Source: a virus. Taken from it: a stretch of DNA of 64,000 nt. Shown here one piece after another: positions 2,061 through 13,314 of the stretch (the stretch's first letter is position 1; every line of letters starts with the position of its first letter). The notes below the pieces were generated by a model, which was given only the letters and a program-made list of their open reading frames with translations, was not told the origin of the DNA and made no database searches. The translations under genes and the position numbers were made by a program. Where the stretch lies: positions 1-64,000 of the IMG/VR virus record IMGVR_UViG_3300033568_000010; one strand, 5' to 3'.

Positions 2061-3746
2061 ATGTCTAATTTTAAAGAAGAGTTAGGTTATCCAATGCGTA
2101 GTTCTGGAGAAGTGGTCAAGATGAGAACTAATAAAAAAGTTAAACAGTACAGAGCGATTAGAGAAGAAAAGGAAACTAAAGCCTTGATTGCTGATAGGCT
2201 TAAGAAAGTAGGATCACACTATTTTTCTTCTGCACGACACGTAGGGCTAGCTAAAATAAAGGGAGCAAAGCCAGAAGACCTGCACGACAGGTTACGCGCT
2301 GCAGCTACAGAGTATTACTCTTTACCTGAACATGAACAGCATAGACTTCACCAAGAAAGTATGGTTCTTAGAAATAACAAACCTATGATTACTCCCTTTG
2401 GTGGAAACCCTAAGACTTCAAAAGAAACCCCCGGCATGGTAACCACGTTACTACACCTTCCTTCTCACAAGGCAAGTGGTATCAATACATGTGAATATGA
2501 ACAGGGGTGTGCCGGTGGATGTATAGACAAAACAGGAAACCCCGGTAGTGCATCAGCTAAAACACACGGTAGGTTAGATAGACTACATCACATGTACCAT
2601 AACCCACTGCATGCTATAGCACATATCGACCATGAAGTAACCAAGATGAAGAAGGTAGCTGCTAAGTCTGGTAAAAAGTTAGGCATTAGACTTAATGGAA
2701 CATCAGACCTTCCTTGGCATAAAATTGCCCCTCAAATGTTTGATAAACATAAAGATGTGCAATTCTATGACTATACCAAAAACTACGACACAATTAAAGA
2801 TACATCTTCCATTCCTAAAAACTATGACATCACGTTTAGTTCTACTGGGTTGAACCATCCCGGTAGTAACTGGCATCACGCCAAAGAGTATTTAGACAAG
2901 GGTGGAAAAGTAGCAATGACTTTTGCTCGTATGCCAAAAATTACACGTAAAGGTGTTGTTGTTGGTGGGCATCACCTGCCAACACATGTACACGATGAAG
3001 CAACTGGGAAGAAGTACAAAGTGCATAATGGAGATATGTATGACGCAAGGTCAGAGGATCATGCGGTAAGCGGAACTCCTAAAGGTGAAGGGCTTATTGT
3101 AGGCCTTTCATATAAGAGATCAAAGAAATACTCGTGGAAAAATGCCCCAAACTTTGCTGTAAAGGGTGGAAAGCCTAGAAATATAATTAACAAGTTAATC
3201 AACCACGGTAAAAATAAACAAGAAATAGTTAATTCTGAAGACGACATAGTAACTGCACATAAGGGCCTTAACCCAGAGCACTACGTTGCCAGAGATGCAC
3301 CCGCTACCCATCTCAAAGAAGCACATACCACGGCAGCAGATGTCAACAAGGATAGGTTTGGACATGTAGCTTCGTCACCTGTAAAAAGAACACATCTTCA
3401 CGGATTCTGCTTAGCTCAAACAGATTATGCCCCACACGGTGGCACTATCTGTGGAAAGGTAGCTCCTTACCTTGCTGACCATCCTTCGGAGGGTGTTATA
3501 GGTAATATGTGCAAAGCTCACGCACTTGAGTTTGGTGCTAAAATAAATGAGGCTTCAAAAGTTACATATGATAAGTCTTGCCCAAAGTGTGGGCATGCTA
3601 CTTCAAAAATGACAGCGGGTACTGAGCCTATTAAGTGGGGGTGTGCAAACCCCGACTGTGGCAAATCATGGAGTTCAGATGATGAGCCAGTGTTACGCAA
3701 AAAAGCAGCGGCGAAGAAGAAAATATTTGGTTCAATGAGTACGTAG
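2061..3746 (+). CDS. Hypothetical protein with a Cys cluster and a possible phage GP88-like core, plus C-terminal zinc ribbons
   Basis: 561-aa ORF. Motifs: TCEYEQGCAGGCIDKTGN, then IRLNGTSDLPWH and FYDYTKNYD, which recall the GP88 family from memory only. C-terminus has CPKCGH...CANPDCGKSW. The start is 5 nt after the previous stop. Confidence 0.35.
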   Translation: MSNFKEELGYPMRSSGEVVKMRTNKKVKQYRAIREEKETKALIADRLKKVGSHYFSSARHVGLAKIKGAKPEDLHDRLRAAATEYYSLPEHEQHRLHQESMVLRNNKPMITPFGGNPKTSKETPGMVTTLLHLPSHKASGINTCEYEQGCAGGCIDKTGNPGSASAKTHGRLDRLHHMYHNPLHAIAHIDHEVTKMKKVAAKSGKKLGIRLNGTSDLPWHKIAPQMFDKHKDVQFYDYTKNYDTIKDTSSIPKNYDITFSSTGLNHPGSNWHHAKEYLDKGGKVAMTFARMPKITRKGVVVGGHHLPTHVHDEATGKKYKVHNGDMYDARSEDHAVSGTPKGEGLIVGLSYKRSKKYSWKNAPNFAVKGGKPRNIINKLINHGKNKQEIVNSEDDIVTAHKGLNPEHYVARDAPATHLKEAHTTAADVNKDRFGHVASSPVKRTHLHGFCLAQTDYAPHGGTICGKVAPYLADHPSEGVIGNMCKAHALEFGAKINEASKVTYDKSCPKCGHATSKMTAGTEPIKWGCANPDCGKSWSSDDEPVLRKKAAAKKKIFGSMST

Positions 3747-3858
3747 ACATTTAACTAAACAACATACCGGATAAATCACGGAAAAACCAGTAATCAAAGA
3801 CTGAATTACCTCATATTAGAGAGGATAAGTCTTTAAAGGAAATTAAGGAGTCTTACAA

Positions 3859-4641
3859 ATGAGAGCAGAACTTACCAGAACAAATGCCGCGCTAGCCTCA
3901 CGTTTACTCAAGCTAAACGGTGCTACCGGAACAAACAAGGCGACAGCTATTACTGAGGGTACACCCACAGAGGTACTTGCTCCTGAGTCAGACGCTACCC
4001 GCCAGAAAGACATGGATATCCAGCTTGCAATGAATAAGTTTGGAATTCCAGCCCCAGTAGGAGCAGAGCCAGCCGGTAACAATGGAGAGTTCTCCATGGG
4101 TACACAGGACCCAATGGGACAGGACGAGCCTGCCCATAACCAGCCGGGACAGCCTGACCAGCAATTTGGTATGACTCGTCCAGAGGACAGAAAGGGCGAT
4201 AATTACAATGCCGGTCCCGGCTCACAGACTTCGTCTGAACAGGGTGGACTTAGCGACGGAAATAAGCCCCGCTTTGAGGGTACAGTCATTGAGGGCTTCT
4301 CTGATGAAGACCTTATTGAGATGTATATCGAAGTCTGTGGTTCTATTGACGAAGCGCTTTGGAGCCTATGCATCACAGGTATCCCTCTACGGGAAGCTGA
4401 AGCAGTTCTTCTTGGTGGAGATCCCATCACAGAAGGTGTCATGGGTAAGCTTGCAGGAAAGATTCAGCAAGTAAGTGCTAAGCTTGGTATCAGTAAACCA
4501 GCAGTAGATAAGGTTGCGCTAAAGAAGAAGCTTCATGCCTTCCATGCCGCATCCAGCCCAACGACTAAGCCTAAGTTTATGAAGAAGGATACAGACAAGC
4601 CTTTCTCAGCGTTTGAGAAGAAGCCACATAAGATCAAGTAA
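3859..4641 (+). CDS. Hypothetical protein (Q/P/G-rich middle, K-rich C-terminus)
   Basis: 260-aa ORF preceded by a strong SD (TAAGGAG at 3843-3849). No recognisable motif. Confidence 0.6.
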   Translation: MRAELTRTNAALASRLLKLNGATGTNKATAITEGTPTEVLAPESDATRQKDMDIQLAMNKFGIPAPVGAEPAGNNGEFSMGTQDPMGQDEPAHNQPGQPDQQFGMTRPEDRKGDNYNAGPGSQTSSEQGGLSDGNKPRFEGTVIEGFSDEDLIEMYIEVCGSIDEALWSLCITGIPLREAEAVLLGGDPITEGVMGKLAGKIQQVSAKLGISKPAVDKVALKKKLHAFHAASSPTTKPKFMKKDTDKPFSAFEKKPHKIK

Positions 4642-5538: not shown

Positions 5539-7890
5539 ATGAAATTTGTATCTCCCGGCGTATATGTACGGGAAATTGACCTAAGCTTGTATATCCCTAC
5601 ACTCTCAACTACGGTTGCGGGGATGGTAGGTACAGCAACAAAAGGCCCAATCAATGAGCTTACATTTGTTTCAAGTGTAAACCAGTTCATTAAGGTCTTT
5701 GGTAACCCAAACCCAGACCACCTGATGCCTTATGCGGCTCTTCAGTTTCTCCGCAGAGGTAACCAGCTTTGGGTTGTTCGCGTAGCTGGATCGGATGCCG
5801 CTTCTGCTACTAATGAATTTGATGCAGTTCTTCTTGGTTATGTTCGCTCAAAGGCAACAGTCACAAGCGGAGTGCAGTCATTCACAATCACAAGCACTGC
5901 CTTCAAACTTAAGATTGAGGTTACAGACGCTCGTCAGGTAACTCCAGTAGTTTCTACTGATGAGATCTCACTTGATTATGGCACTGTCAGCAAAACCTAC
6001 CCCAATGCAGAGGCAATGGCTACAGAGATCACTAATAAGCTGAAGAGAAGCGTAGCGCTTCATTCTTACGTTTCAGCCACAGCTATTAATTCAACCGTAG
6101 CTTCGGTTACTGGATCTCGTCTACATCTAGTAGGTCTTATCCCTGACCCGCTAGTTACGTTCAAGGTACTACCCACTGCAGCACCTGCAGAGGAAGCGGC
6201 TCTTGGGCTTGGCGACCTTACGATGGGCGCTGTAACTGCCGTTGAAGGTGGAGTAGGTACCGTATCAGTAGCAACCCACGGGTATAAGGTATCAGCAATC
6301 AATGGTCGCGGAGAAAGTATCGCATCTGCAGAAGCAACAGTAGCAGTAACTGGTGCTCCAAAAGCAGTCGATCTTAGCTGGGCTGCTGTTGCTGGAGCAG
6401 AAAGCTACAAGGTGTATGGCAGAACTAGCACTGGTCCTTGGGGCTTCATTGCTTCAACTACTACTGCAACCTACACTGACGCTGGCAGCATCGTTCCTTC
6501 TGCAACTGTACTCGCTCCTGTAGCAAGTACTATCAGAAAGGGAACACCTATTGCTCTAACCAATAAGTTTGATATTGTAGCGAATAGCACTGGTATCTGG
6601 GGTAATAACCTTACCATCCAGTTTACACTTAATGAGAAGCAGCCATTCCGCTTCGACATCGGTGTATACGAGTCTAGTCCTTCATACACTGCCTCTATTA
6701 CTTCTACAGAAGCCTTTAAGGGTCTTCGTATCGAGTATCAGGCTGCTTCAAGCTTTGACAGCACACTTACCGATTCTTGGATTGGTAAGTCACTAGGTAC
6801 CTACAACGGTGTACCTGCTATTCCAGAAATCACCACTGGCGGATCAGACAGCGTTTCATACCGTATTGATACGGACGATGCGATGCTTGCTGAAATCACG
6901 GAAGGCACTTCCTATCAGAAGATCCTTATGCCAAAGATGCAGTATCTAACACTAGCCGGTGGAGACGATGGTACTTCAAGCCTAGTGGACGGAGACATCA
7001 TCGGAACCGTTCAGGGAACTACTCAGACAGGTCTACAACTTCTTCGTAACCCTGAGTTTGTAGACATCAACCTTCTAATGGCACCGGGAGAGAGTTCAGC
7101 TGCCATCCTTAATGAGCTTATCGCTATCTGCGAAGAGCGTGGGGACTGTATGGCTATCCTTGATCCACCGGATAACTACTCAATTCAGCAAGTTGTAGAT
7201 TGGCACAATGGAACAGGAGCGTTCTCTGATCATCAGTCATTCTCCTCAAGCTACGCTGCTCTATACTACCCTTGGATTGAGGTCTATGACGCATATAACG
7301 CTGTAAATGTATGGACTCCTCCTTCAGGCCATGTATCTGCGGTCTATGCCTACACTGATTTCATCAGTGAGACATGGTTTGCACCTGCTGGCTTTAACCG
7401 CGCTCACATCACTGCTGGACTCCGTGTCCGTTACAGTGCTGATCAGGGAGAGCGTGATCTTCTTTATGGTAATGGTAACGCAGTCAATCCTATCGTACAG
7501 TTCCCTCAGGATGGTATCACTATCTGGGGACAGCGCACTCTTCAACGGGCACCAACTGCTCTTGATCGAGTCAATGTACGCAGACTCCTGCTTTACATGC
7601 GTAAGGTTGTAGCCCGTGCAGTCAAGTATCTCGTATTTGAGCCAAATGACCCAGCTACATGGCGTCAGTTTGTTAACCTTATTGAGCCTTGGTGCCAGAC
7701 TGTACAGTCACGCAGAGGCATCTATGAGTTCTTGGTTATCTGCGACGAGACTACAAACACCCCAGATGTTATCGACCAGAACACTATGGTTGGTCGCATC
7801 TACCTCAAGCCTACGAAGGCAGCTGAAATGATCAGTGTTGACTTCGTTGTCACAAACACGGGCGCTTCATTTGAAGAGAGCCTGTACTAA
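5539..7890 (+). CDS. Contractile tail sheath protein with an internal Fn3-like insertion
   Basis: N-terminus MKFVSPGVYVREIDLS and C-terminal GNAVNPIVQFPQDGITIWGQRTL are classic sheath motifs. AGGAGG SD upstream. Followed by the tube gene. Confidence 0.9.
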   Translation: MKFVSPGVYVREIDLSLYIPTLSTTVAGMVGTATKGPINELTFVSSVNQFIKVFGNPNPDHLMPYAALQFLRRGNQLWVVRVAGSDAASATNEFDAVLLGYVRSKATVTSGVQSFTITSTAFKLKIEVTDARQVTPVVSTDEISLDYGTVSKTYPNAEAMATEITNKLKRSVALHSYVSATAINSTVASVTGSRLHLVGLIPDPLVTFKVLPTAAPAEEAALGLGDLTMGAVTAVEGGVGTVSVATHGYKVSAINGRGESIASAEATVAVTGAPKAVDLSWAAVAGAESYKVYGRTSTGPWGFIASTTTATYTDAGSIVPSATVLAPVASTIRKGTPIALTNKFDIVANSTGIWGNNLTIQFTLNEKQPFRFDIGVYESSPSYTASITSTEAFKGLRIEYQAASSFDSTLTDSWIGKSLGTYNGVPAIPEITTGGSDSVSYRIDTDDAMLAEITEGTSYQKILMPKMQYLTLAGGDDGTSSLVDGDIIGTVQGTTQTGLQLLRNPEFVDINLLMAPGESSAAILNELIAICEERGDCMAILDPPDNYSIQQVVDWHNGTGAFSDHQSFSSSYAALYYPWIEVYDAYNAVNVWTPPSGHVSAVYAYTDFISETWFAPAGFNRAHITAGLRVRYSADQGERDLLYGNGNAVNPIVQFPQDGITIWGQRTLQRAPTALDRVNVRRLLLYMRKVVARAVKYLVFEPNDPATWRQFVNLIEPWCQTVQSRRGIYEFLVICDETTNTPDVIDQNTMVGRIYLKPTKAAEMISVDFVVTNTGASFEESLY

Positions 7891-7955: not shown

Positions 7956-8459
7956 ATGCCTTTACTTACAGCAAGACACCTAGCAGAAATGCGGGGTCGA
8001 TACGAACCACAGCGGTCTTTCGACTGGCTGATTGAGTTTGAAATTGGAAGTGCAAGAGAAATTATTAAACTAGCAGTTGATCAGGCTTTCATGCCTACGG
8101 AATCAAACGAACCAATCGAACTTCACTATGGTAACGAAGTTCAGTACGCAGCCGGTAAGGCTCGTTGGGAGTTTGGCCAGCTTTCTATCCGTGACATGGT
8201 TGACCTTGACATTGCTAGGCAGATTTCAGAATGGCGTAAGACAGTATATAACCCAATCACTGGTGATATTTTCTTCGCTAAAGACTACAAGAAACAGGGT
8301 ACGATTATTCTTCTTTCGCCTGAGGGTTCAATTCAGCGCAAATGGAAAGTAGAAGGACTCTGGCCTACTGCAGTCTCTTACGGTCAGCTTGACTACGCTG
8401 CTAACGATATTGTTAGAATTCAGTGTACAATTGCATTTGACCGTGCATACCGCATCTGA
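7956..8459 (+). CDS. Tail tube protein
   Basis: 167-aa ORF directly after the sheath gene with an AGGAGG SD. Size and position are typical of contractile-tail tube proteins. Confidence 0.7.
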   Translation: MPLLTARHLAEMRGRYEPQRSFDWLIEFEIGSAREIIKLAVDQAFMPTESNEPIELHYGNEVQYAAGKARWEFGQLSIRDMVDLDIARQISEWRKTVYNPITGDIFFAKDYKKQGTIILLSPEGSIQRKWKVEGLWPTAVSYGQLDYAANDIVRIQCTIAFDRAYRI

Positions 8460-8582: not shown

Positions 8583-9368
8583 ATGTCAAAAGTAGCAGAG
8601 TATATGACTCTTCCATCTATGGGACTTTTTTATGGTGGCGCAATTCCAGAGGGTAAGGTTGAATACTTCCCAATGACGGCCAGAGAAGAAAAGATCTTAG
8701 CAGGCGGGTTTAAAGATGGTAACCAATTGATCGATACGATCATTAAAGCCTGTGTCCCAACCCTCACTATCCCTGTAGAAGACCTTCTAATTGGGGATAA
8801 GTTCTTTATGATGTTGGTTATTCGTGCAGCTTCCTACGGAAGCAAATACGGCATGATGATCACTTGCGACTGCGGACAGCAGTTCCGTCACGAAGTAGAC
8901 CTAGGGTTTACTGGGGAAGACGCAGAAGAGGGGTTTGACGAGGAATTCAGCAACGTGTTTAAGATTAAGGTACCAGAGGAAGGGGCTAAAGAGCCGTTCC
9001 TAGTACAGTTACCAAAGTCCAAGGATATGGTCGAATTTCGCCTTCTAAGGGGCAAAGACGAAAAAGCCATTGCGAAGTACGCAGAACAGAATATGTCGAA
9101 GCGTAAGTCAAAAGAAGACGGAAATCCAGCCTATATCTACCGTATTGCCAGACACATTGTGTCAGTTAACGGGGACGAGCTTTCAACGATGGACACTATG
9201 GCCTTCGTAGAAGACCTTATCGGCTATGATTCTGCGGCTCTACGCAATGCAATTGATGCGGTTGATGTGGGCATTGATACCCAATTTACTACGGAGTGTC
9301 CGAAGTGCGACAGCGTGATTGAATCATCGCTCGCATTAGGGCCTGAGTTTTTTCGCCCTAAGTCCTGA
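8583..9368 (+). CDS. T4 gp26-like hub/tail assembly chaperone (zero-frame product)
   Basis: N-terminus TLPSMGLFYGG...VEYFPMTAREEKIL resembles gp26-type baseplate hub proteins. Zn ribbon CDCG...CPKCDS. Located between the tube and tape measure genes. Confidence 0.55.
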   Translation: MSKVAEYMTLPSMGLFYGGAIPEGKVEYFPMTAREEKILAGGFKDGNQLIDTIIKACVPTLTIPVEDLLIGDKFFMMLVIRAASYGSKYGMMITCDCGQQFRHEVDLGFTGEDAEEGFDEEFSNVFKIKVPEEGAKEPFLVQLPKSKDMVEFRLLRGKDEKAIAKYAEQNMSKRKSKEDGNPAYIYRIARHIVSVNGDELSTMDTMAFVEDLIGYDSAALRNAIDAVDVGIDTQFTTECPKCDSVIESSLALGPEFFRPKS

Positions 9369-9549
9369 AGACTATGAAGGGATAAACGAGCAAATTTTCG
9401 CTCTGACCTATCGGGGCCACTTTAACTCTGCCCACGTAGAATCAATGGTAACAAGTGAACGGAATTGGTTCTACTACCGTCTCATCAAGCAGATAGAAAA
9501 AGAGAATGAGGCAGCTAGAGGTCACTCTAGCAGCATGGAAGATGGCTAA
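9340..9549 (+). CDS. +1-frame extension of the chaperone gene (a frameshift product of about 321 aa would span 8583-9549)
   Basis: The +1 frame reads GLSFFALSPEDYEGINEQIFALTYRGHFNSAHVESMVTSERNWFYYRLIKQIEKENEAARGHSSSMEDG. There is no start codon before 9445. Its stop (9547-9549) overlaps an in-frame ATG of the tape measure gene at 9542. Confidence 0.4.
   Translation, partial: GLSFFALSPEDYEGINEQIFALTYRGHFNSAHVESMVTSERNWFYYRLIKQIEKENEAARGHSSSMEDG
9348..9354 (+). promoter_or_regulatory. Putative +1 recoding (slippery) site TTT-TTT-C
   Basis: Zero-frame codons are GAG TTT TTT CGC. tRNA-Phe on the second TTT can re-pair on TTC one nt downstream. The +1 frame is open from 9340 to 9549. Confidence 0.4.
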
Positions 9550-12500
9550 AAAATCGATAAGCGATCAAGCGATAGGCTTTACTCTAAAAGTAGAAGCAGG
9601 GGATGCTCTAGATGACCTGAAGAGCCTAGGAAAGGAGTATTCTAAGCTAGAGTCCCAAATAAAGAAAACTGCCCAATCTATAACAGAAGGCACTAACAAG
9701 ATTTTAGACGCTACGTCTAAAGCTAGTGATGCCGAAATTAATGTGGGCAGCGAAGCTACGTCCAAAAATATGGGGGCTACAGGGAAGGGTGGAAGAGATA
9801 AAAGATCCATGTTTGGAGTACCCACCATATCTGCCATATTAGCGATGACCAAGTCTACGCTAAAAAAACTAAAGACAGAGAGCAGCGTAAAGAAAGACTT
9901 AGAAGACTTGACGGGTGGAGCAGGGGGTCCTATGGACCCCACTGGCACCAATGCAATCACTAAAGAAGAGATGGAAGATGTCTTAAAGAGAGCATTCTCC
10001 GTAGGTAAGGGTGCAACGGAACAGGGCGTTGCCCTACCTAGAGAGTTCTATGATCTACTTGGCACAATAGAGCATCAGCTTGCTAAAGTGTTTGGTGTGG
10101 ATGTACACGAGGCATATAACACAGAGGCAATGAAGGGCACTATTACCAACGATACAATCGAAGAGTTAAACAAGTTACTTAAGGACGCTATCAACAGAGG
10201 AGGCCCTATCAATAGGGCAACTTCTACCTTAAAGCCAGATGCCAATACATCATATTCTCCTTTAGCCAACATGAAGGAACTCTTTGACGAGAGTGGACCG
10301 CAGGAAATCATACAACCTACCAAACAGCTATTCGGCATTTTTCAACTACTGACTGGGCAGATAGATAAGGCAAAAGAAACCTTTGGCGTATTTTCTATGG
10401 GAGCTAAAGGGCAGATGGCTGCTCTGGTTGCTGCTACTACACTCGTAGTCAAGGTATACTCTAAGTTTTATGATCAATTGATCAGAGTTGCAAAAGCTAC
10501 TCAGTTGGTTGGAAGTGAACTAAAGTCTGTTGAAAAATCCATGATGACCATTACCCGCACTACTGGAGCGGATGCTGACGTTATAGCTAATGCAATGTCT
10601 ACCCTTCGTGCCGGTGGCGTTGCTGTTGGTAAGGACTTAGAAGACCTAACAACACAAGCAGTAAAGATGGGTGCTATTCTTGGGCAAAACGCTGCTGAAA
10701 CCGCTGAGTGGATTGTAAACCTAAACAGGGGACTAAAGCTAAGCAAGAATGGTATCGATCAAGTAAATAGAGCTATGATCTTAACCATCCAGAAGGGTGG
10801 TGTAGCTGCAGATCAGCTGCAAGAAAATGTTACAGCATTAAAAGAATCATTTAGGCTCATGGAGGCCAGCACCTCTGGATTTACTGAAGCCAATAGAGTA
10901 AAGACTATCGAAGCCGTAATGGTTGCTACGCAGAAGTTAGGTAAAACCATGGGTGATACTGCTCAAGCAGCAGACCTATATAATGCAGCTACTAATAAGT
11001 ATTCAGAAGAGCAGTTCTCTATGCTGAAGGTGCTCTCTGAAGTTAATTCTGAATTCTCTGACAGTGAAGCACTATATAAAGCAATGTCAGAGGGTAGAGC
11101 AGATGAAGTATATTCAGATTATGCTAAGGCTGCTAAGCAGATCGTAGACACATATGGAAGTAATGTAGGGATGATTTCTTCTGTGTACGGAACATCTGCT
11201 CAGCGCATCGTTGATATGTCTAAACTTGCTTCTGAGTCTATCGTGGAAGAGACTAGTCTAATATCCAAGAAGTCAAAAGAAAATAAGGCCCTAATAGACT
11301 CTCAATACAAAGAGATGACTAATACCCTTTCCGGTATTAAAGATAAGATCTATAACATCTTCCAGATGTTTATTGCAAAGATAGGCAAGCCAATATTTAA
11401 GCCTATTCTTTGGTTCCTAGATAAATTCTACACCATGCTAACCCTTATACCAGACCCAATAACGGACATTGCTGGTGGTATTGCAGGAATAGCTCTTGGA
11501 CTAGCCACAGTGTTCAGTATCATAAAGGCGGTTACCGGCATAAGCGCACTTGGTGGCCTTTTGAAGAAGTCAAAAGAACTAACCAAGGTAGGGTTCTTCT
11601 CAACAGAAAATATAGCCAAGCTTAAAGCTTCATTCGGTACTGGAAAAGGTACAGGTGGTGTCATTGGTGGCATTAAAGAAGTCGCAAAAGAAATGCTCAC
11701 TCTAGGCAAAGCTACAGAAAAAGTAGCCGCTGCTACTACTAAGGCAGCTACTGCAGCTAAAGCTTTTAGCTTTGCTAAGTTTGCGAAAGCCAACGTGTAT
11801 ATGCTGCTCATCACGGAAACTCTAGGTAGGGCATATAAGGGGATCAGCCTGCTCATAACAGAGGGTAAGGGTCTAGAGCCAATACAGAAAGTGTTTGAGG
11901 GTCTTGGCAGAGCAGCAACAGCATTCAGTGAAGCAATGTCTGCTATATTCAGCGGAGACTTTGCAGGGGCTACTGTTTTCATTGAAAATTTTGGCAATGA
12001 AGTTGCTGCGTTTTTTGAGGATCTACCTGACAAGATAACAGAGTTTCTAGACAAGCTTCCAGAATACATAGCAAAATCGTTTGACAGTGACGGAGGTCTA
12101 CTCGTAGGCATAGTAGATGCCATCAGTAAAGTTCTAGAGTCCACTATGCTATTTGAGGCTGTTATTAAGGCAGGGTTTAAAATTGGAAGCGCTCTAGGTA
12201 CAGGGATGGCGAAAGCACTACCTCTACTGCTGGTAAAACCATTTACCACTGCAATCAAGATGGTAACAGAAATAGTGTTTGGTGAAGTAATGTCACTAGC
12301 AAAGAAGATATCGGACGCACTAAGCAAGATACCTATAATTGGAAGGTTCTTCACTAGTGGCAAAGACTTTGATGCTGGTGTGGCTGACATTAGAAATGGT
12401 GCATCTGCGGCATTAAATAAAGTAGAGGACACTAAAAAAGGGTTTATTGTTAACACTGCTACTACTGCAATGGGGGCTGCAAAGGGGATGTTAAGCGGGA

Positions 12501-12802
12501 TTAGCGATAGCTGGACTTCGGACTCTCCTGCCACTGATAGACCAAAGCCAGCGGCAGTACCAGCCCCAGCACCACAAACTAAGTCTACTATGGATGAACT
12601 AAAATCTATGTTCTCCATACCTAAGATTGAAGTACCGGCAGGAACAGCAATAGATACAGAGTCTACTAATAGAACAGCAGAAGCTACAGAGCAAACAGCT
12701 ATGAGCGTAAATGCCTTAGTAGATTTACTTAGAAAGGCACTTGCCCCTACTGTATCTATGGGTCCTGCTCCTTTCACACAAAACTTTAATGGTGGTAGAT
12801 AA
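9506..12802 (+). CDS. Tail tape measure protein
   Basis: 1098-aa, Ala-rich helical protein with hydrophobic segments (LIPDPITDIAGGIAGIALGLATVFSIIKAV), lying after the chaperone. Alternative start at ATG 9542. Confidence 0.8.
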   Translation: MRQLEVTLAAWKMAKKSISDQAIGFTLKVEAGDALDDLKSLGKEYSKLESQIKKTAQSITEGTNKILDATSKASDAEINVGSEATSKNMGATGKGGRDKRSMFGVPTISAILAMTKSTLKKLKTESSVKKDLEDLTGGAGGPMDPTGTNAITKEEMEDVLKRAFSVGKGATEQGVALPREFYDLLGTIEHQLAKVFGVDVHEAYNTEAMKGTITNDTIEELNKLLKDAINRGGPINRATSTLKPDANTSYSPLANMKELFDESGPQEIIQPTKQLFGIFQLLTGQIDKAKETFGVFSMGAKGQMAALVAATTLVVKVYSKFYDQLIRVAKATQLVGSELKSVEKSMMTITRTTGADADVIANAMSTLRAGGVAVGKDLEDLTTQAVKMGAILGQNAAETAEWIVNLNRGLKLSKNGIDQVNRAMILTIQKGGVAADQLQENVTALKESFRLMEASTSGFTEANRVKTIEAVMVATQKLGKTMGDTAQAADLYNAATNKYSEEQFSMLKVLSEVNSEFSDSEALYKAMSEGRADEVYSDYAKAAKQIVDTYGSNVGMISSVYGTSAQRIVDMSKLASESIVEETSLISKKSKENKALIDSQYKEMTNTLSGIKDKIYNIFQMFIAKIGKPIFKPILWFLDKFYTMLTLIPDPITDIAGGIAGIALGLATVFSIIKAVTGISALGGLLKKSKELTKVGFFSTENIAKLKASFGTGKGTGGVIGGIKEVAKEMLTLGKATEKVAAATTKAATAAKAFSFAKFAKANVYMLLITETLGRAYKGISLLITEGKGLEPIQKVFEGLGRAATAFSEAMSAIFSGDFAGATVFIENFGNEVAAFFEDLPDKITEFLDKLPEYIAKSFDSDGGLLVGIVDAISKVLESTMLFEAVIKAGFKIGSALGTGMAKALPLLLVKPFTTAIKMVTEIVFGEVMSLAKKISDALSKIPIIGRFFTSGKDFDAGVADIRNGASAALNKVEDTKKGFIVNTATTAMGAAKGMLSGISDSWTSDSPATDRPKPAAVPAPAPQTKSTMDELKSMFSIPKIEVPAGTAIDTESTNRTAEATEQTAMSVNALVDLLRKALAPTVSMGPAPFTQNFNGGR

Positions 12803-13314
12803 TGGGAACACCTCCACGCATCATAGAAGACCAGTGTTGGATATTTGACACTGTAACGAAAGATAAAGTAGTGTTTCAGATGATGCCAGAAGTGTCCGAC
12901 AGTAAGTCGGTGAACTGGAACCCGATAGATATTGTGGGAAGATCCCACCCACTGTTGGCTTATAACTCATCAGGCCCACGCACATTTTCATTCACTTTGA
13001 CTTTCTTTGCCCATGCGTCTGTAAGAGATGATAGGTCAATAGAACAAATTAGCTCAGAGCTTAACTGGCTAATGTCACTAGCATATCCAGACTATGGAGG
13101 TGGGCAGGTTCGTCCACCTCACAAGTGCATTTTAAAACTTGGTAAACAGATCGTGTGGCCGGTTGTAGCACAAGACATAAGTATAAGTTATAAATCTATG
13201 TGGGCTAAAAACCTACCTGTGCATGCGGAAGTAAGCTGTACATTTCTAGAGTCAGCGATGAACGCCATATCTTACAGCCAAGTTAGAGGTGGCGGCGGTA
13301 CTGTAAATGGCTAA
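12802..13314 (+). CDS. Tube-fold baseplate protein (tube initiator, gp48/gp54-like)
   Basis: FQMMPEVSDSKSVNWNPIDIVGRSHPLLAYNSSGPRTFSFTLTFF matches the motif pattern of contractile-injection tube/initiator proteins. Its start overlaps the tape measure stop (TAATG). Confidence 0.5.
   Translation: MGTPPRIIEDQCWIFDTVTKDKVVFQMMPEVSDSKSVNWNPIDIVGRSHPLLAYNSSGPRTFSFTLTFFAHASVRDDRSIEQISSELNWLMSLAYPDYGGGQVRPPHKCILKLGKQIVWPVVAQDISISYKSMWAKNLPVHAEVSCTFLESAMNAISYSQVRGGGGTVNG

Follow-up and report, generated by a model that had tools for sequence, protein, structure and literature searches.

How does a tailed phage read a second open frame that begins within the last codons of its tail chaperone gene, lacks a start codon ahead of most of its conserved part, and ends on the start of the tape measure gene? 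The question is raised by a stretch of 64,000 nucleotides (nt), positions 1 to 64,000 of the IMG/VR virus record IMGVR_UViG_3300033568_000010, hereafter called the window. A first-pass annotation of this DNA had proposed that recoding at a run of six T residues (T6) provides a C-terminally extended chaperone just upstream of the tape measure. Comparison with related loci now makes it probable that a programmed +1 shift of tRNA-Phe at UUU_C gives a long chaperone, gp26-gp51C, beside the short gp26-like form. The features concerned are the following:

8583-9368, plus strand: short chaperone gene, TAC-N, T4 gp26-like; 261 amino acids (aa), zero frame, stop TGA 9366-9368.
9340-9365, plus strand: overlap of the zero and +1 frames, 26 nt; the only stretch with both frames open, bounded by TAG 9337-9339 and TGA 9366-9368.
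9348-9354, plus strand: proposed shift site TTT TTT C, zero-frame Phe-Phe followed by the C of CGC; UUU 9351-9353 would re-pair on UUC 9352-9354.
9355-9549, plus strand: +1 extension, TAC-C, gp51 C-terminal-like; 64 codons and the stop TAA 9547-9549.
9382-9504, plus strand: conserved core of the extension, INEQIFALTYRGHFNSAHVESMVTSERNWFYYRLIKQIEKE, from an alignment of 31 extensions.

The zero-frame gene ends ...GGG CCT GAG TTT TTT CGC CCT AAG TCC TGA, with its stop at the position first reported. After TAG 9337-9339, which closes it, the +1 frame has 69 open codons (9340-9546) before the TAA, and its earliest ATG, GTG or TTG is the ATG at 9445, past two thirds of the conserved core; the first-pass annotation had read both the extent of this frame and the absence of an earlier start correctly. 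It had also confined the overlap of the two frames to GAG TTT TTT CGC, and here the overlap proves longer than those four codons, although the T6 run is indeed the sole slippery element within its 26 nt. Stop-free runs in the +1 frame of the window's own long open reading frames (ORFs) have a median of 8 codons, and 0.76% of them reach 69 codons; chance would rarely produce an open +1 frame of this length. A -1 shift in the window was rejected, since the -1 frame is shut within 4 codons (TGA 9344, again TAA 9359).

Joining 8583-9353 to 9355-9546 gives a predicted long product of 321 aa with the junction ...LGPEFF/ALSPEDYEG... (junction peptide ...LGPEFF/ALSPEDYEGINEQIFALTYR); the corresponding peptide of HSE3 would read ...TPEFF/VPSLDSEEGR. 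At its stop, the extension overlaps an in-frame ATG of the tape measure gene at 9542 (ATGGCTAA), again as first described. A mechanical list of ORFs puts the tape measure start at ATG 9506, inside the +1 extension. The closest relative, locus L005, reads TAATGGCTA at the junction of extension and tape measure, and because L005 and L052 start their tape measure at an ATG GCT that overlaps the extension stop, ATG 9542 is the likelier start.

The two-frame layout is deeply conserved. A scan of IMG/VR with the single protein gave no matches, and an alignment-based scan was therefore used, which provided 49 loci; further loci came from ENA, GTDB and GenBank, the scan of a genome collection contributing one locus only. 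Alignment to homologues, suggested at the outset as a check on whether both parts form one continuous ORF, finds split frames in 37 loci with 23-64% protein identity. Across these 37 loci, the +1 frame stays open through the chaperone stop and reaches the tape measure start after 45-113 codons, and the -1 frame is closed. In most of them an ORF of 700-1100 aa starts within 0-30 nt of the end of the extension. The open +1 frame always extends back to the Phe-Phe (FF) codons and is not conserved upstream of them; in L015 it opens just 2 nt ahead of the T run, narrowing the shift site. A nucleotide search of the locus against GenBank phages gave no DNA-level match. In tblastn searches the best GenBank relatives, at 28-34% identity, are the Bacillus phages vB_BceM-HSE3 and SP-15, Listeria phage LIS04 and Streptococcus phage vB_SagM-GXN1. 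In these four isolates the gene annotated as 'baseplate hub' is followed by a gap of 200-270 nt before the tape measure, either empty or occupied by a small hypothetical ORF, and all four have an open +1 frame across the chaperone stop to the tape measure. Other +1 loci belong to Flavobacterium phage immuto, Microcystis phage Mel-JY01 and a 484-kilobase uncultured phage. The claim of a recoded, C-terminally extended chaperone upstream of the tape measure is thereby strongly supported: layout, extension peptide and UUU-pyrimidine are all conserved in the 37 loci.

The end of the zero frame is conserved as well. F256 and F257 of TAC-N are invariant across 17 homologues, every one of which stops shortly after, and metagenome homologues end 2-10 residues past the invariant Phe-Phe, the exception being protein P0010, whose zero frame continues; the zero-frame tail after FF (R-P-x-x-stop) is itself conserved among TAC-N homologues. 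P0010 is encoded on an ENA scaffold (L062, 1304-1447), where the zero frame is open for 47 codons past Phe-Phe and the called protein has 287 aa and an acidic tail; the length of the zero-frame tail is therefore variable. The +1 frame of the same locus nevertheless encodes the conserved extension and runs to the start of the tape measure gene. Two IMG/VR contigs, L012 and L013, are identical upstream; the extension of L012 (3126-3379) is split into two frames after 20 codons and that of L013 is intact, so that the break in L012 is probably an assembly indel or a decaying copy.

The UUU_Y site is under selection at the nucleotide level. The first-pass annotation had supposed that tRNA-Phe re-pairs on TTC at the T run, and this fits the wider set well: the slip codon is zero-frame TTT followed by C or T in all 32 tabulated non-redundant loci and is never TTC. 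The Phe-Phe pair at the site is written TTT TTT in 24 of these loci and TTC TTT in 5, and TTT-pyrimidine is the only conserved slippery element within the overlap common to all loci. Other Phe codons in the same genes are divided almost evenly (164 TTT, 141 TTC; 54% TTT), and loci of 61-65% GC, which otherwise prefer TTC by 7:1, 8:0 and 10:0, keep TTT TTT at the site. Under gene-specific usage, the joint probability of 32 TTT in 32 loci has a log10 P of about -12.6, which is an upper bound on significance that overstates independence, the loci being related. The zero-frame codon after the slip codon is CGT in 17 of the 32 loci and CGC in 4. In bacteria, +1 shifts are known to occur particularly readily at UUU_Ynn, even where no stop codon is present; YopN-TyeA uses this site, and UCC_UUU_CGU is the +1 cassette of influenza PA-X (PMC5009743).

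Nine +1 loci have no homopolymer at the site and keep UUU_C within the same two-frame layout. Six of them (L001, L003, L017, L023, L036 and L063) read TTC TTT C, L052 reads CCC TTT C, phage immuto AGC TTT C and LR756508 AAC TTT C. These nine loci favour ribosomal slippage over polymerase slippage. They also bear on a -2 shift, which had been named as an alternative to +1: it was rejected because re-pairing is impossible at TTC TTT C-type sites and fails in the nine loci with TTC TTT C, AGC TTT C or similar.

Several points weigh against a programmed ribosomal +1 shift. The long product is a prediction in every member of the family. The caveat on relatedness attached to the probability above is one of these points, and because the overlap is coding in two frames, part of the conservation of TTT and CGT may have that cause. 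In the long ORFs of the window, the A-site codon CGC is no more than moderately infrequent (4.8 per 1000, with AGA at 15.7); the +1-frame codon GCC, at 12.6 per 1000, is commoner than CGC. The loci share no conserved downstream RNA structure (mean z -0.12 versus -0.33 in the control), and although the window itself has a modest downstream hairpin (z -1.6), the family mean is no better than the control. No consistent Shine-Dalgarno-like stimulator motif is found upstream of the site across loci, and the window contains no tRNA genes. Finally, the site in the window is a T6 run, at which low-level polymerase slippage is possible.

This last point leads to the alternative that survives best, namely that RNA polymerase drops one U on the T6 run and the long product is translated normally from a minority of messenger RNA. 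The site is T6 or T7 in some three quarters of the +1 loci and in each of the ten -1 loci examined (see below), and one homopolymer could serve both directions, with one U fewer or one U more, which would explain the switching between +1 and -1 among relatives. However, the nine homopolymer-free loci have T3 only with the same layout, and polymerase slippage on three bases is unexpected. The register of the run always obeys ribosomal rules, with UUU_Y in the zero frame for +1 (32 of 32) and a fit of the -1 loci to X_XXY_YYZ as U_UUU_UUC/G (10 of 10). Moreover, six U residues are fewer than usually needed for efficient polymerase slippage in bacteria. Taken with the homopolymer-free sites, these points make transcriptional slippage unlikely, and the shift would be ribosomal.

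What the +1 frame encodes can be recognized from its relatives. Alignment of the 31 non-redundant extensions shows a common core of about 50 residues, with the consensus ..QFxLxYxxGxSxxxxxxMxxxERxxxxxxLxxxxxxEK. A profile hidden Markov model (HMM) was built from the other loci, leaving out the window and its closest relative L005; among 891 six-frame ORFs of the window it matches the +1 ORF alone (E 2.1e-13, 46 bits). Against phrog_634, 'baseplate hub assembly catalyst', the extension of the window scores E 0.018, and 6 of the 31 family members match, with a best E of 4.7e-5. The extension HMM also matches peptides annotated as 'g51' in T4-like phages, i.e., those of S-RSM4 (37.9 bits), P-SSM7 (30.2), Vibrio phage PVA23 (23.1), Aeromonas phage Ahp1 (19.5), Desulfovibrio phage 7757 (18.0) and phiM9 (16.9), and the C-terminus of phiAS4 gp51 at 10.4 bits. 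Since the direct comparison with T4 gp51 is marginal and not significant (hhalign E 0.059; HMM 2.4 bits), the link to T4 gp51 rests on the T4-like 'g51' intermediates and phrog_634. Via these intermediates, the extension seems to correspond to the C-terminal domain of T4 gp51, and the long product would hence be a gp26-gp51C fusion (TAC-NC). T4 gp51 consists of a T4_baseplate domain (aa 1-201, E 3.9e-52) and a 48-aa tail, whereas T4 gp26 is the domain alone and ends ...KEFFELL. Natural in-frame fusions of both domains thus exist, in T4 gp51 and in a group of loci with a tandem duplication described below. A Pfam scan of the 31 extensions gave scattered weak matches only, e.g., DUF6760 with E 0.03 in 2 of 31. 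A phmmer search with the extension against 1.84 billion representatives gave 17 matches, mostly small ORF calls and one spurious leucine-rich-repeat protein. A single-sequence AlphaFold2 (AF2) model of the fused product was uninformative, with a predicted local distance difference test score (pLDDT) of 36.

Gene callers do annotate small separate ORFs here, e.g., HSE3_gp075, SP15_046 and the 49-117 aa proteins P0014-P0030, and some loci carry an ATG or GTG upstream of the core, so that the +1 ORF might be taken for an independent small gene that uses its own start, or re-initiation after the chaperone stop, and makes no fusion. The extension lacks an independent start, however. In the window the earliest start lies too far inside the core, as described above; no ATG, GTG or TTG occurs between the upstream +1 stop and the conserved core in 10 of 31 loci, the window included, and L037 and L038 have none anywhere in the +1 ORF. 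An open frame that always reaches the FF codons and is not conserved upstream of them likewise speaks against a separate gene, and the natural fusions show the domain as a C-terminal appendage of a gp26-like domain. An independent gene is therefore very improbable. Even less credible is an assembly or sequencing indel, with a true T5 and a single ordinary ORF of 321 aa. Some sequencing chemistries often misread the length of homopolymers, and in-frame fusions of both domains occur naturally, but the same frame split is found in 37 independent assemblies, finished isolate genomes among them, L005 has the identical GAG TTT TTT CGC CCT AAG, the zero-frame tail past FF is conserved and homopolymer-free loci show the same frames, so that the indel can be set aside.

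With a programmed +1 shift of tRNA-Phe as the preferred reading, expression of the locus may be pictured as follows. Most ribosomes would terminate at the TGA of 8583-9368 and so make the short chaperone of 261 aa (TAC-N, the equivalent of T4 gp26). In a minority, with peptidyl-tRNA-Phe on UUU 9351-9353 and CGC in the A site, the tRNA would slip one base forward onto UUC, and these ribosomes would go on with GCC CUA AGU... to the TAA at 9547-9549. The result would be the 321-aa long form, TAC-NC, whose last 64 aa form a domain homologous to the C-terminal end of T4 gp51. The shift probably has an efficiency of a few per cent. If lambda G/GT and T4 gp26/gp51 are a guide, the tape measure protein and the baseplate hub would be the targets of both forms while the tail is assembled, the additional domain of the rare long form may recruit a tube or hub partner, and the finished virion would be expected to contain neither form.

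The arrangement resembles that of lambda G/GT and P2 E/E+E' (Levin, 1993; Xu, Hendrix and Duda, 2004), in which the gene directly upstream of the tape measure undergoes a rare frameshift at its 3' end that adds a C-terminal domain ending at the tape measure start. The window has the same slot, a start-less overlapping ORF that runs to the tape measure start and a conserved slippery site. In lambda, short and long products occur at a ratio of about 30:1, and the T domain binds the tube protein (PMC5009743). Lambda and P2 shift by -1 at G_GGA_AAG-type heptamers, whereas the shift in the window is +1, and TAC-N of the window, with its 261 aa, is larger than its lambda and P2 counterparts and has four nearly invariant cysteines. 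No Pfam TAC family was matched by TAC-N, and no relative in the PDB was found by sequence or fold; the system of the window is an analogue of lambda G/GT and not demonstrably a homologue.

In its slip codon and 3' neighbour, the UUU_C of the window agrees with the UUU_Y +1 sites of Escherichia coli argI, Yersinia YopN-TyeA and influenza A PA-X, and the core UUU_CGU of influenza PA-X is identical to the site in 17 of the 32 members of the window family. The genes themselves are unrelated to the chaperone of the window. Bacterial UUU_Ynn sites need neither a stop codon nor an RNA structure for the +1 shift (PMC5009743), as seems to be the case in the window. A +1 event in a tail chaperone is also less unusual than the first-pass annotation had held: 350 of 2718 annotated tail chaperone shift sites in SEA-PHAGES are forward, and the chaperone shift of the archaeal myovirus HSTV-2 is 'very likely +1' (PMC5009743). 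Actinobacteriophages and HSTV-2 thus use a forward shift for the long form, as proposed for the window, although their chaperones belong to other protein families and have other slip motifs.

The closest parallels are the gp26/gp51 chaperones of T4-like phages, which are listed as hub assembly chaperones (Leiman et al., 2010; PMC3004832). Their N-terminal domain belongs to the same Pfam family as TAC-N, T4_baseplate (PF12322), they carry an invariant Phe-Phe at the domain junction, and they share with the window the logic of a short and a long product encoded next to tape measure or hub genes; their 'g51' peptides and the C-terminus of gp51 are homologous to the extension. A T6 junction also occurs in cyanophages, KVP40-like vibriophages, phiM9, Aeromonas phage Ahp1, Desulfovibrio phage 7757, PA5oct and a 595-kilobase uncultured phage. 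Here g26 ends xxT TTT TTC/G followed by the stop, and g51 occupies the -1 frame, which opens about 30-40 nt ahead of the g26 stop. These phages therefore need -1 (xxT TTT TTC/G, X_XXY_YYZ), whereas the zero frame of the window lies one base over (TTT TTT C) and needs +1. PA5oct and the 595-kilobase phage have the same -1 heptamer, and in a tblastn search with the full -1 peptide 593 records match from its first residues, i.e., overlapping g26. Loci of the -1 type include L054 (4678-4899, Synechococcus phage S-RSM4), L056, L057, L058, L060, L061, L064 and L068. In GenBank, g51 of those records is either an ORF of 31-59 aa truncated at an internal ATG or is left unannotated, and none carries a joined coding sequence (CDS).

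In T4 and phiAS4, the long form is a separate full-length paralogue, gene 51; the window has no paralogue adjacent to its TAC-N gene. The T4 record (L055, 3803-4090) also annotates an internal in-frame product, 26', which corresponds to the last 95 aa of gp26, so that gene 26 of T4 already yields more than one product, by another route. A third solution is found in L035 (3259-4266) and L040-L048 (about 3200-4266; IMG/VR), where the next gene encodes a second T4_baseplate protein of about 340 aa that has the extension domain at its C-terminus (50-59 bits) and no frameshift extension. Judged from sequence, this arrangement appears to be a tandem duplication equivalent to T4 genes 26/51. Some T4-like phages are reported to carry one short gene and one long fusion gene in place of a frameshift (Vladimirov et al., 2022, PMID 34826709, as summarised in PMC10885494), and poly-T has been described as a -1 signal in the TAC-N genes of T4-like phages (Vladimirov et al., 2022, as summarised in PMC12846349). 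A rough neighbour-joining tree, which carries no support values, places a T4-like clade (-1, or the two genes of T4) apart from a large clade in which +1 is predominant, with the -1 pair L047/L049 and the duplication group nested inside the latter.

We lean towards the view that one Phe-Phe/T-run junction in the T4_baseplate family is read by +1 (UUU_CGU) in a large, mostly uncultivated clade and by -1 (U_UUU_UUC) in T4-like clades, with several replacements by gene duplication and with toggling by single-base indels. In the searchable literature on frameshifting linked to gp26, gp51 or T4_baseplate, where Vladimirov et al. (2022) is represented through citing papers, no description of a +1 mode was found, and the +1 mode at UUU_C(GU) appears to be undescribed for the gp26/gp51 family. 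A short and a long gp26-type product are already known, made through -1 at poly-T or from two genes; what differs here is the direction.

The neighbouring genes place the locus in the tail module of a contractile-tailed phage:

5539-7890: tail sheath gene, matches Phage_sheath_1.
7956-8459, plus strand: tail tube gene, gp19-type; Pfam Phage_T4_gp19 E 3.8e-8, phrog_4542 E 9.6e-21.
9542-12802, plus strand: tape measure gene, ORF of 1086 aa; phrog_28 'tail length tape measure protein' E 2.7e-12.

The order is sheath (5539-7890), tube (7956-8459), chaperone (8583-9368) and tape measure (9542-12802), so that the 8583-9368 gene sits between tail tube and tape measure, the classical chaperone slot. 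A gp15-like sheath stabiliser is encoded with the sheath gene upstream of the tube gene, a CIS_tube-like protein after the tape measure gene, and a spike (Phage_base_V), a beta-helix protein and Baseplate_J farther downstream. TAC-N itself matches T4_baseplate with E 1.5e-14 and 54.7 bits (curated cut-off 24.5) and phrog_150 'baseplate hub' with E 2.3e-18. Its AF2 model, from an alignment of 7 sequences, is confident (pLDDT 84, predicted template modelling score 0.80); a Foldseek search with this model against the PDB gave no match below E = 1, and PDB sequence searches with TAC-N gave nothing relevant, with zinc-finger noise only. Cys95, Cys97, Cys239 and Cys242 of TAC-N (window 8865-8873 and 9297-9308; CxC ... 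CxxC) are nearly invariant in the 17 homologues; together they may bind zinc and so bridge two segments of the protein that are far apart. The weak zinc-finger matches of the PDB profile search concern the first cysteine pair only.

Two further observations concern other genes of the module. The sheath protein is long (783 aa), and about 400 of its residues, between an N-terminal gp18 domain III and the C-terminal sheath domains, have no Pfam match, suggesting a large surface insertion. On the minus strand, an ORF of 506 aa (11428-12948) lies antisense to the tape measure gene; it is most likely an artefact of the composition of that gene, whose coding sequence is rich in Ala, Gly and Lys.

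A joined CDS is the appropriate annotation for the locus. The records of SP-15, HSE3, LIS04, GXN1, immuto, Mel-JY01 and many metagenomic phages currently omit the extension or show it as a small hypothetical ORF. If the family does read its Phe-Phe/T-run junction as outlined above, most database entries for the locus, with their small 'hypothetical' or truncated 'g51' ORFs, would be wrong, and a stimulator-free UUU_C(GU) would be a widespread, selected +1 signal in phages. Both SP-15 and HSE3 can be cultured, which makes +1 frameshifting at UUU_Y testable in Gram-positive hosts. Chaperones with two products made by frameshifting are typical of long-tailed phages, in which correct tail assembly is set up by the ratio of both forms. 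Sister lineages of this family shift by -1 at the same T run or have a duplicated gene, and selection therefore seems to act on the pair of products; neither the direction of the shift nor even its existence seems to be the target.

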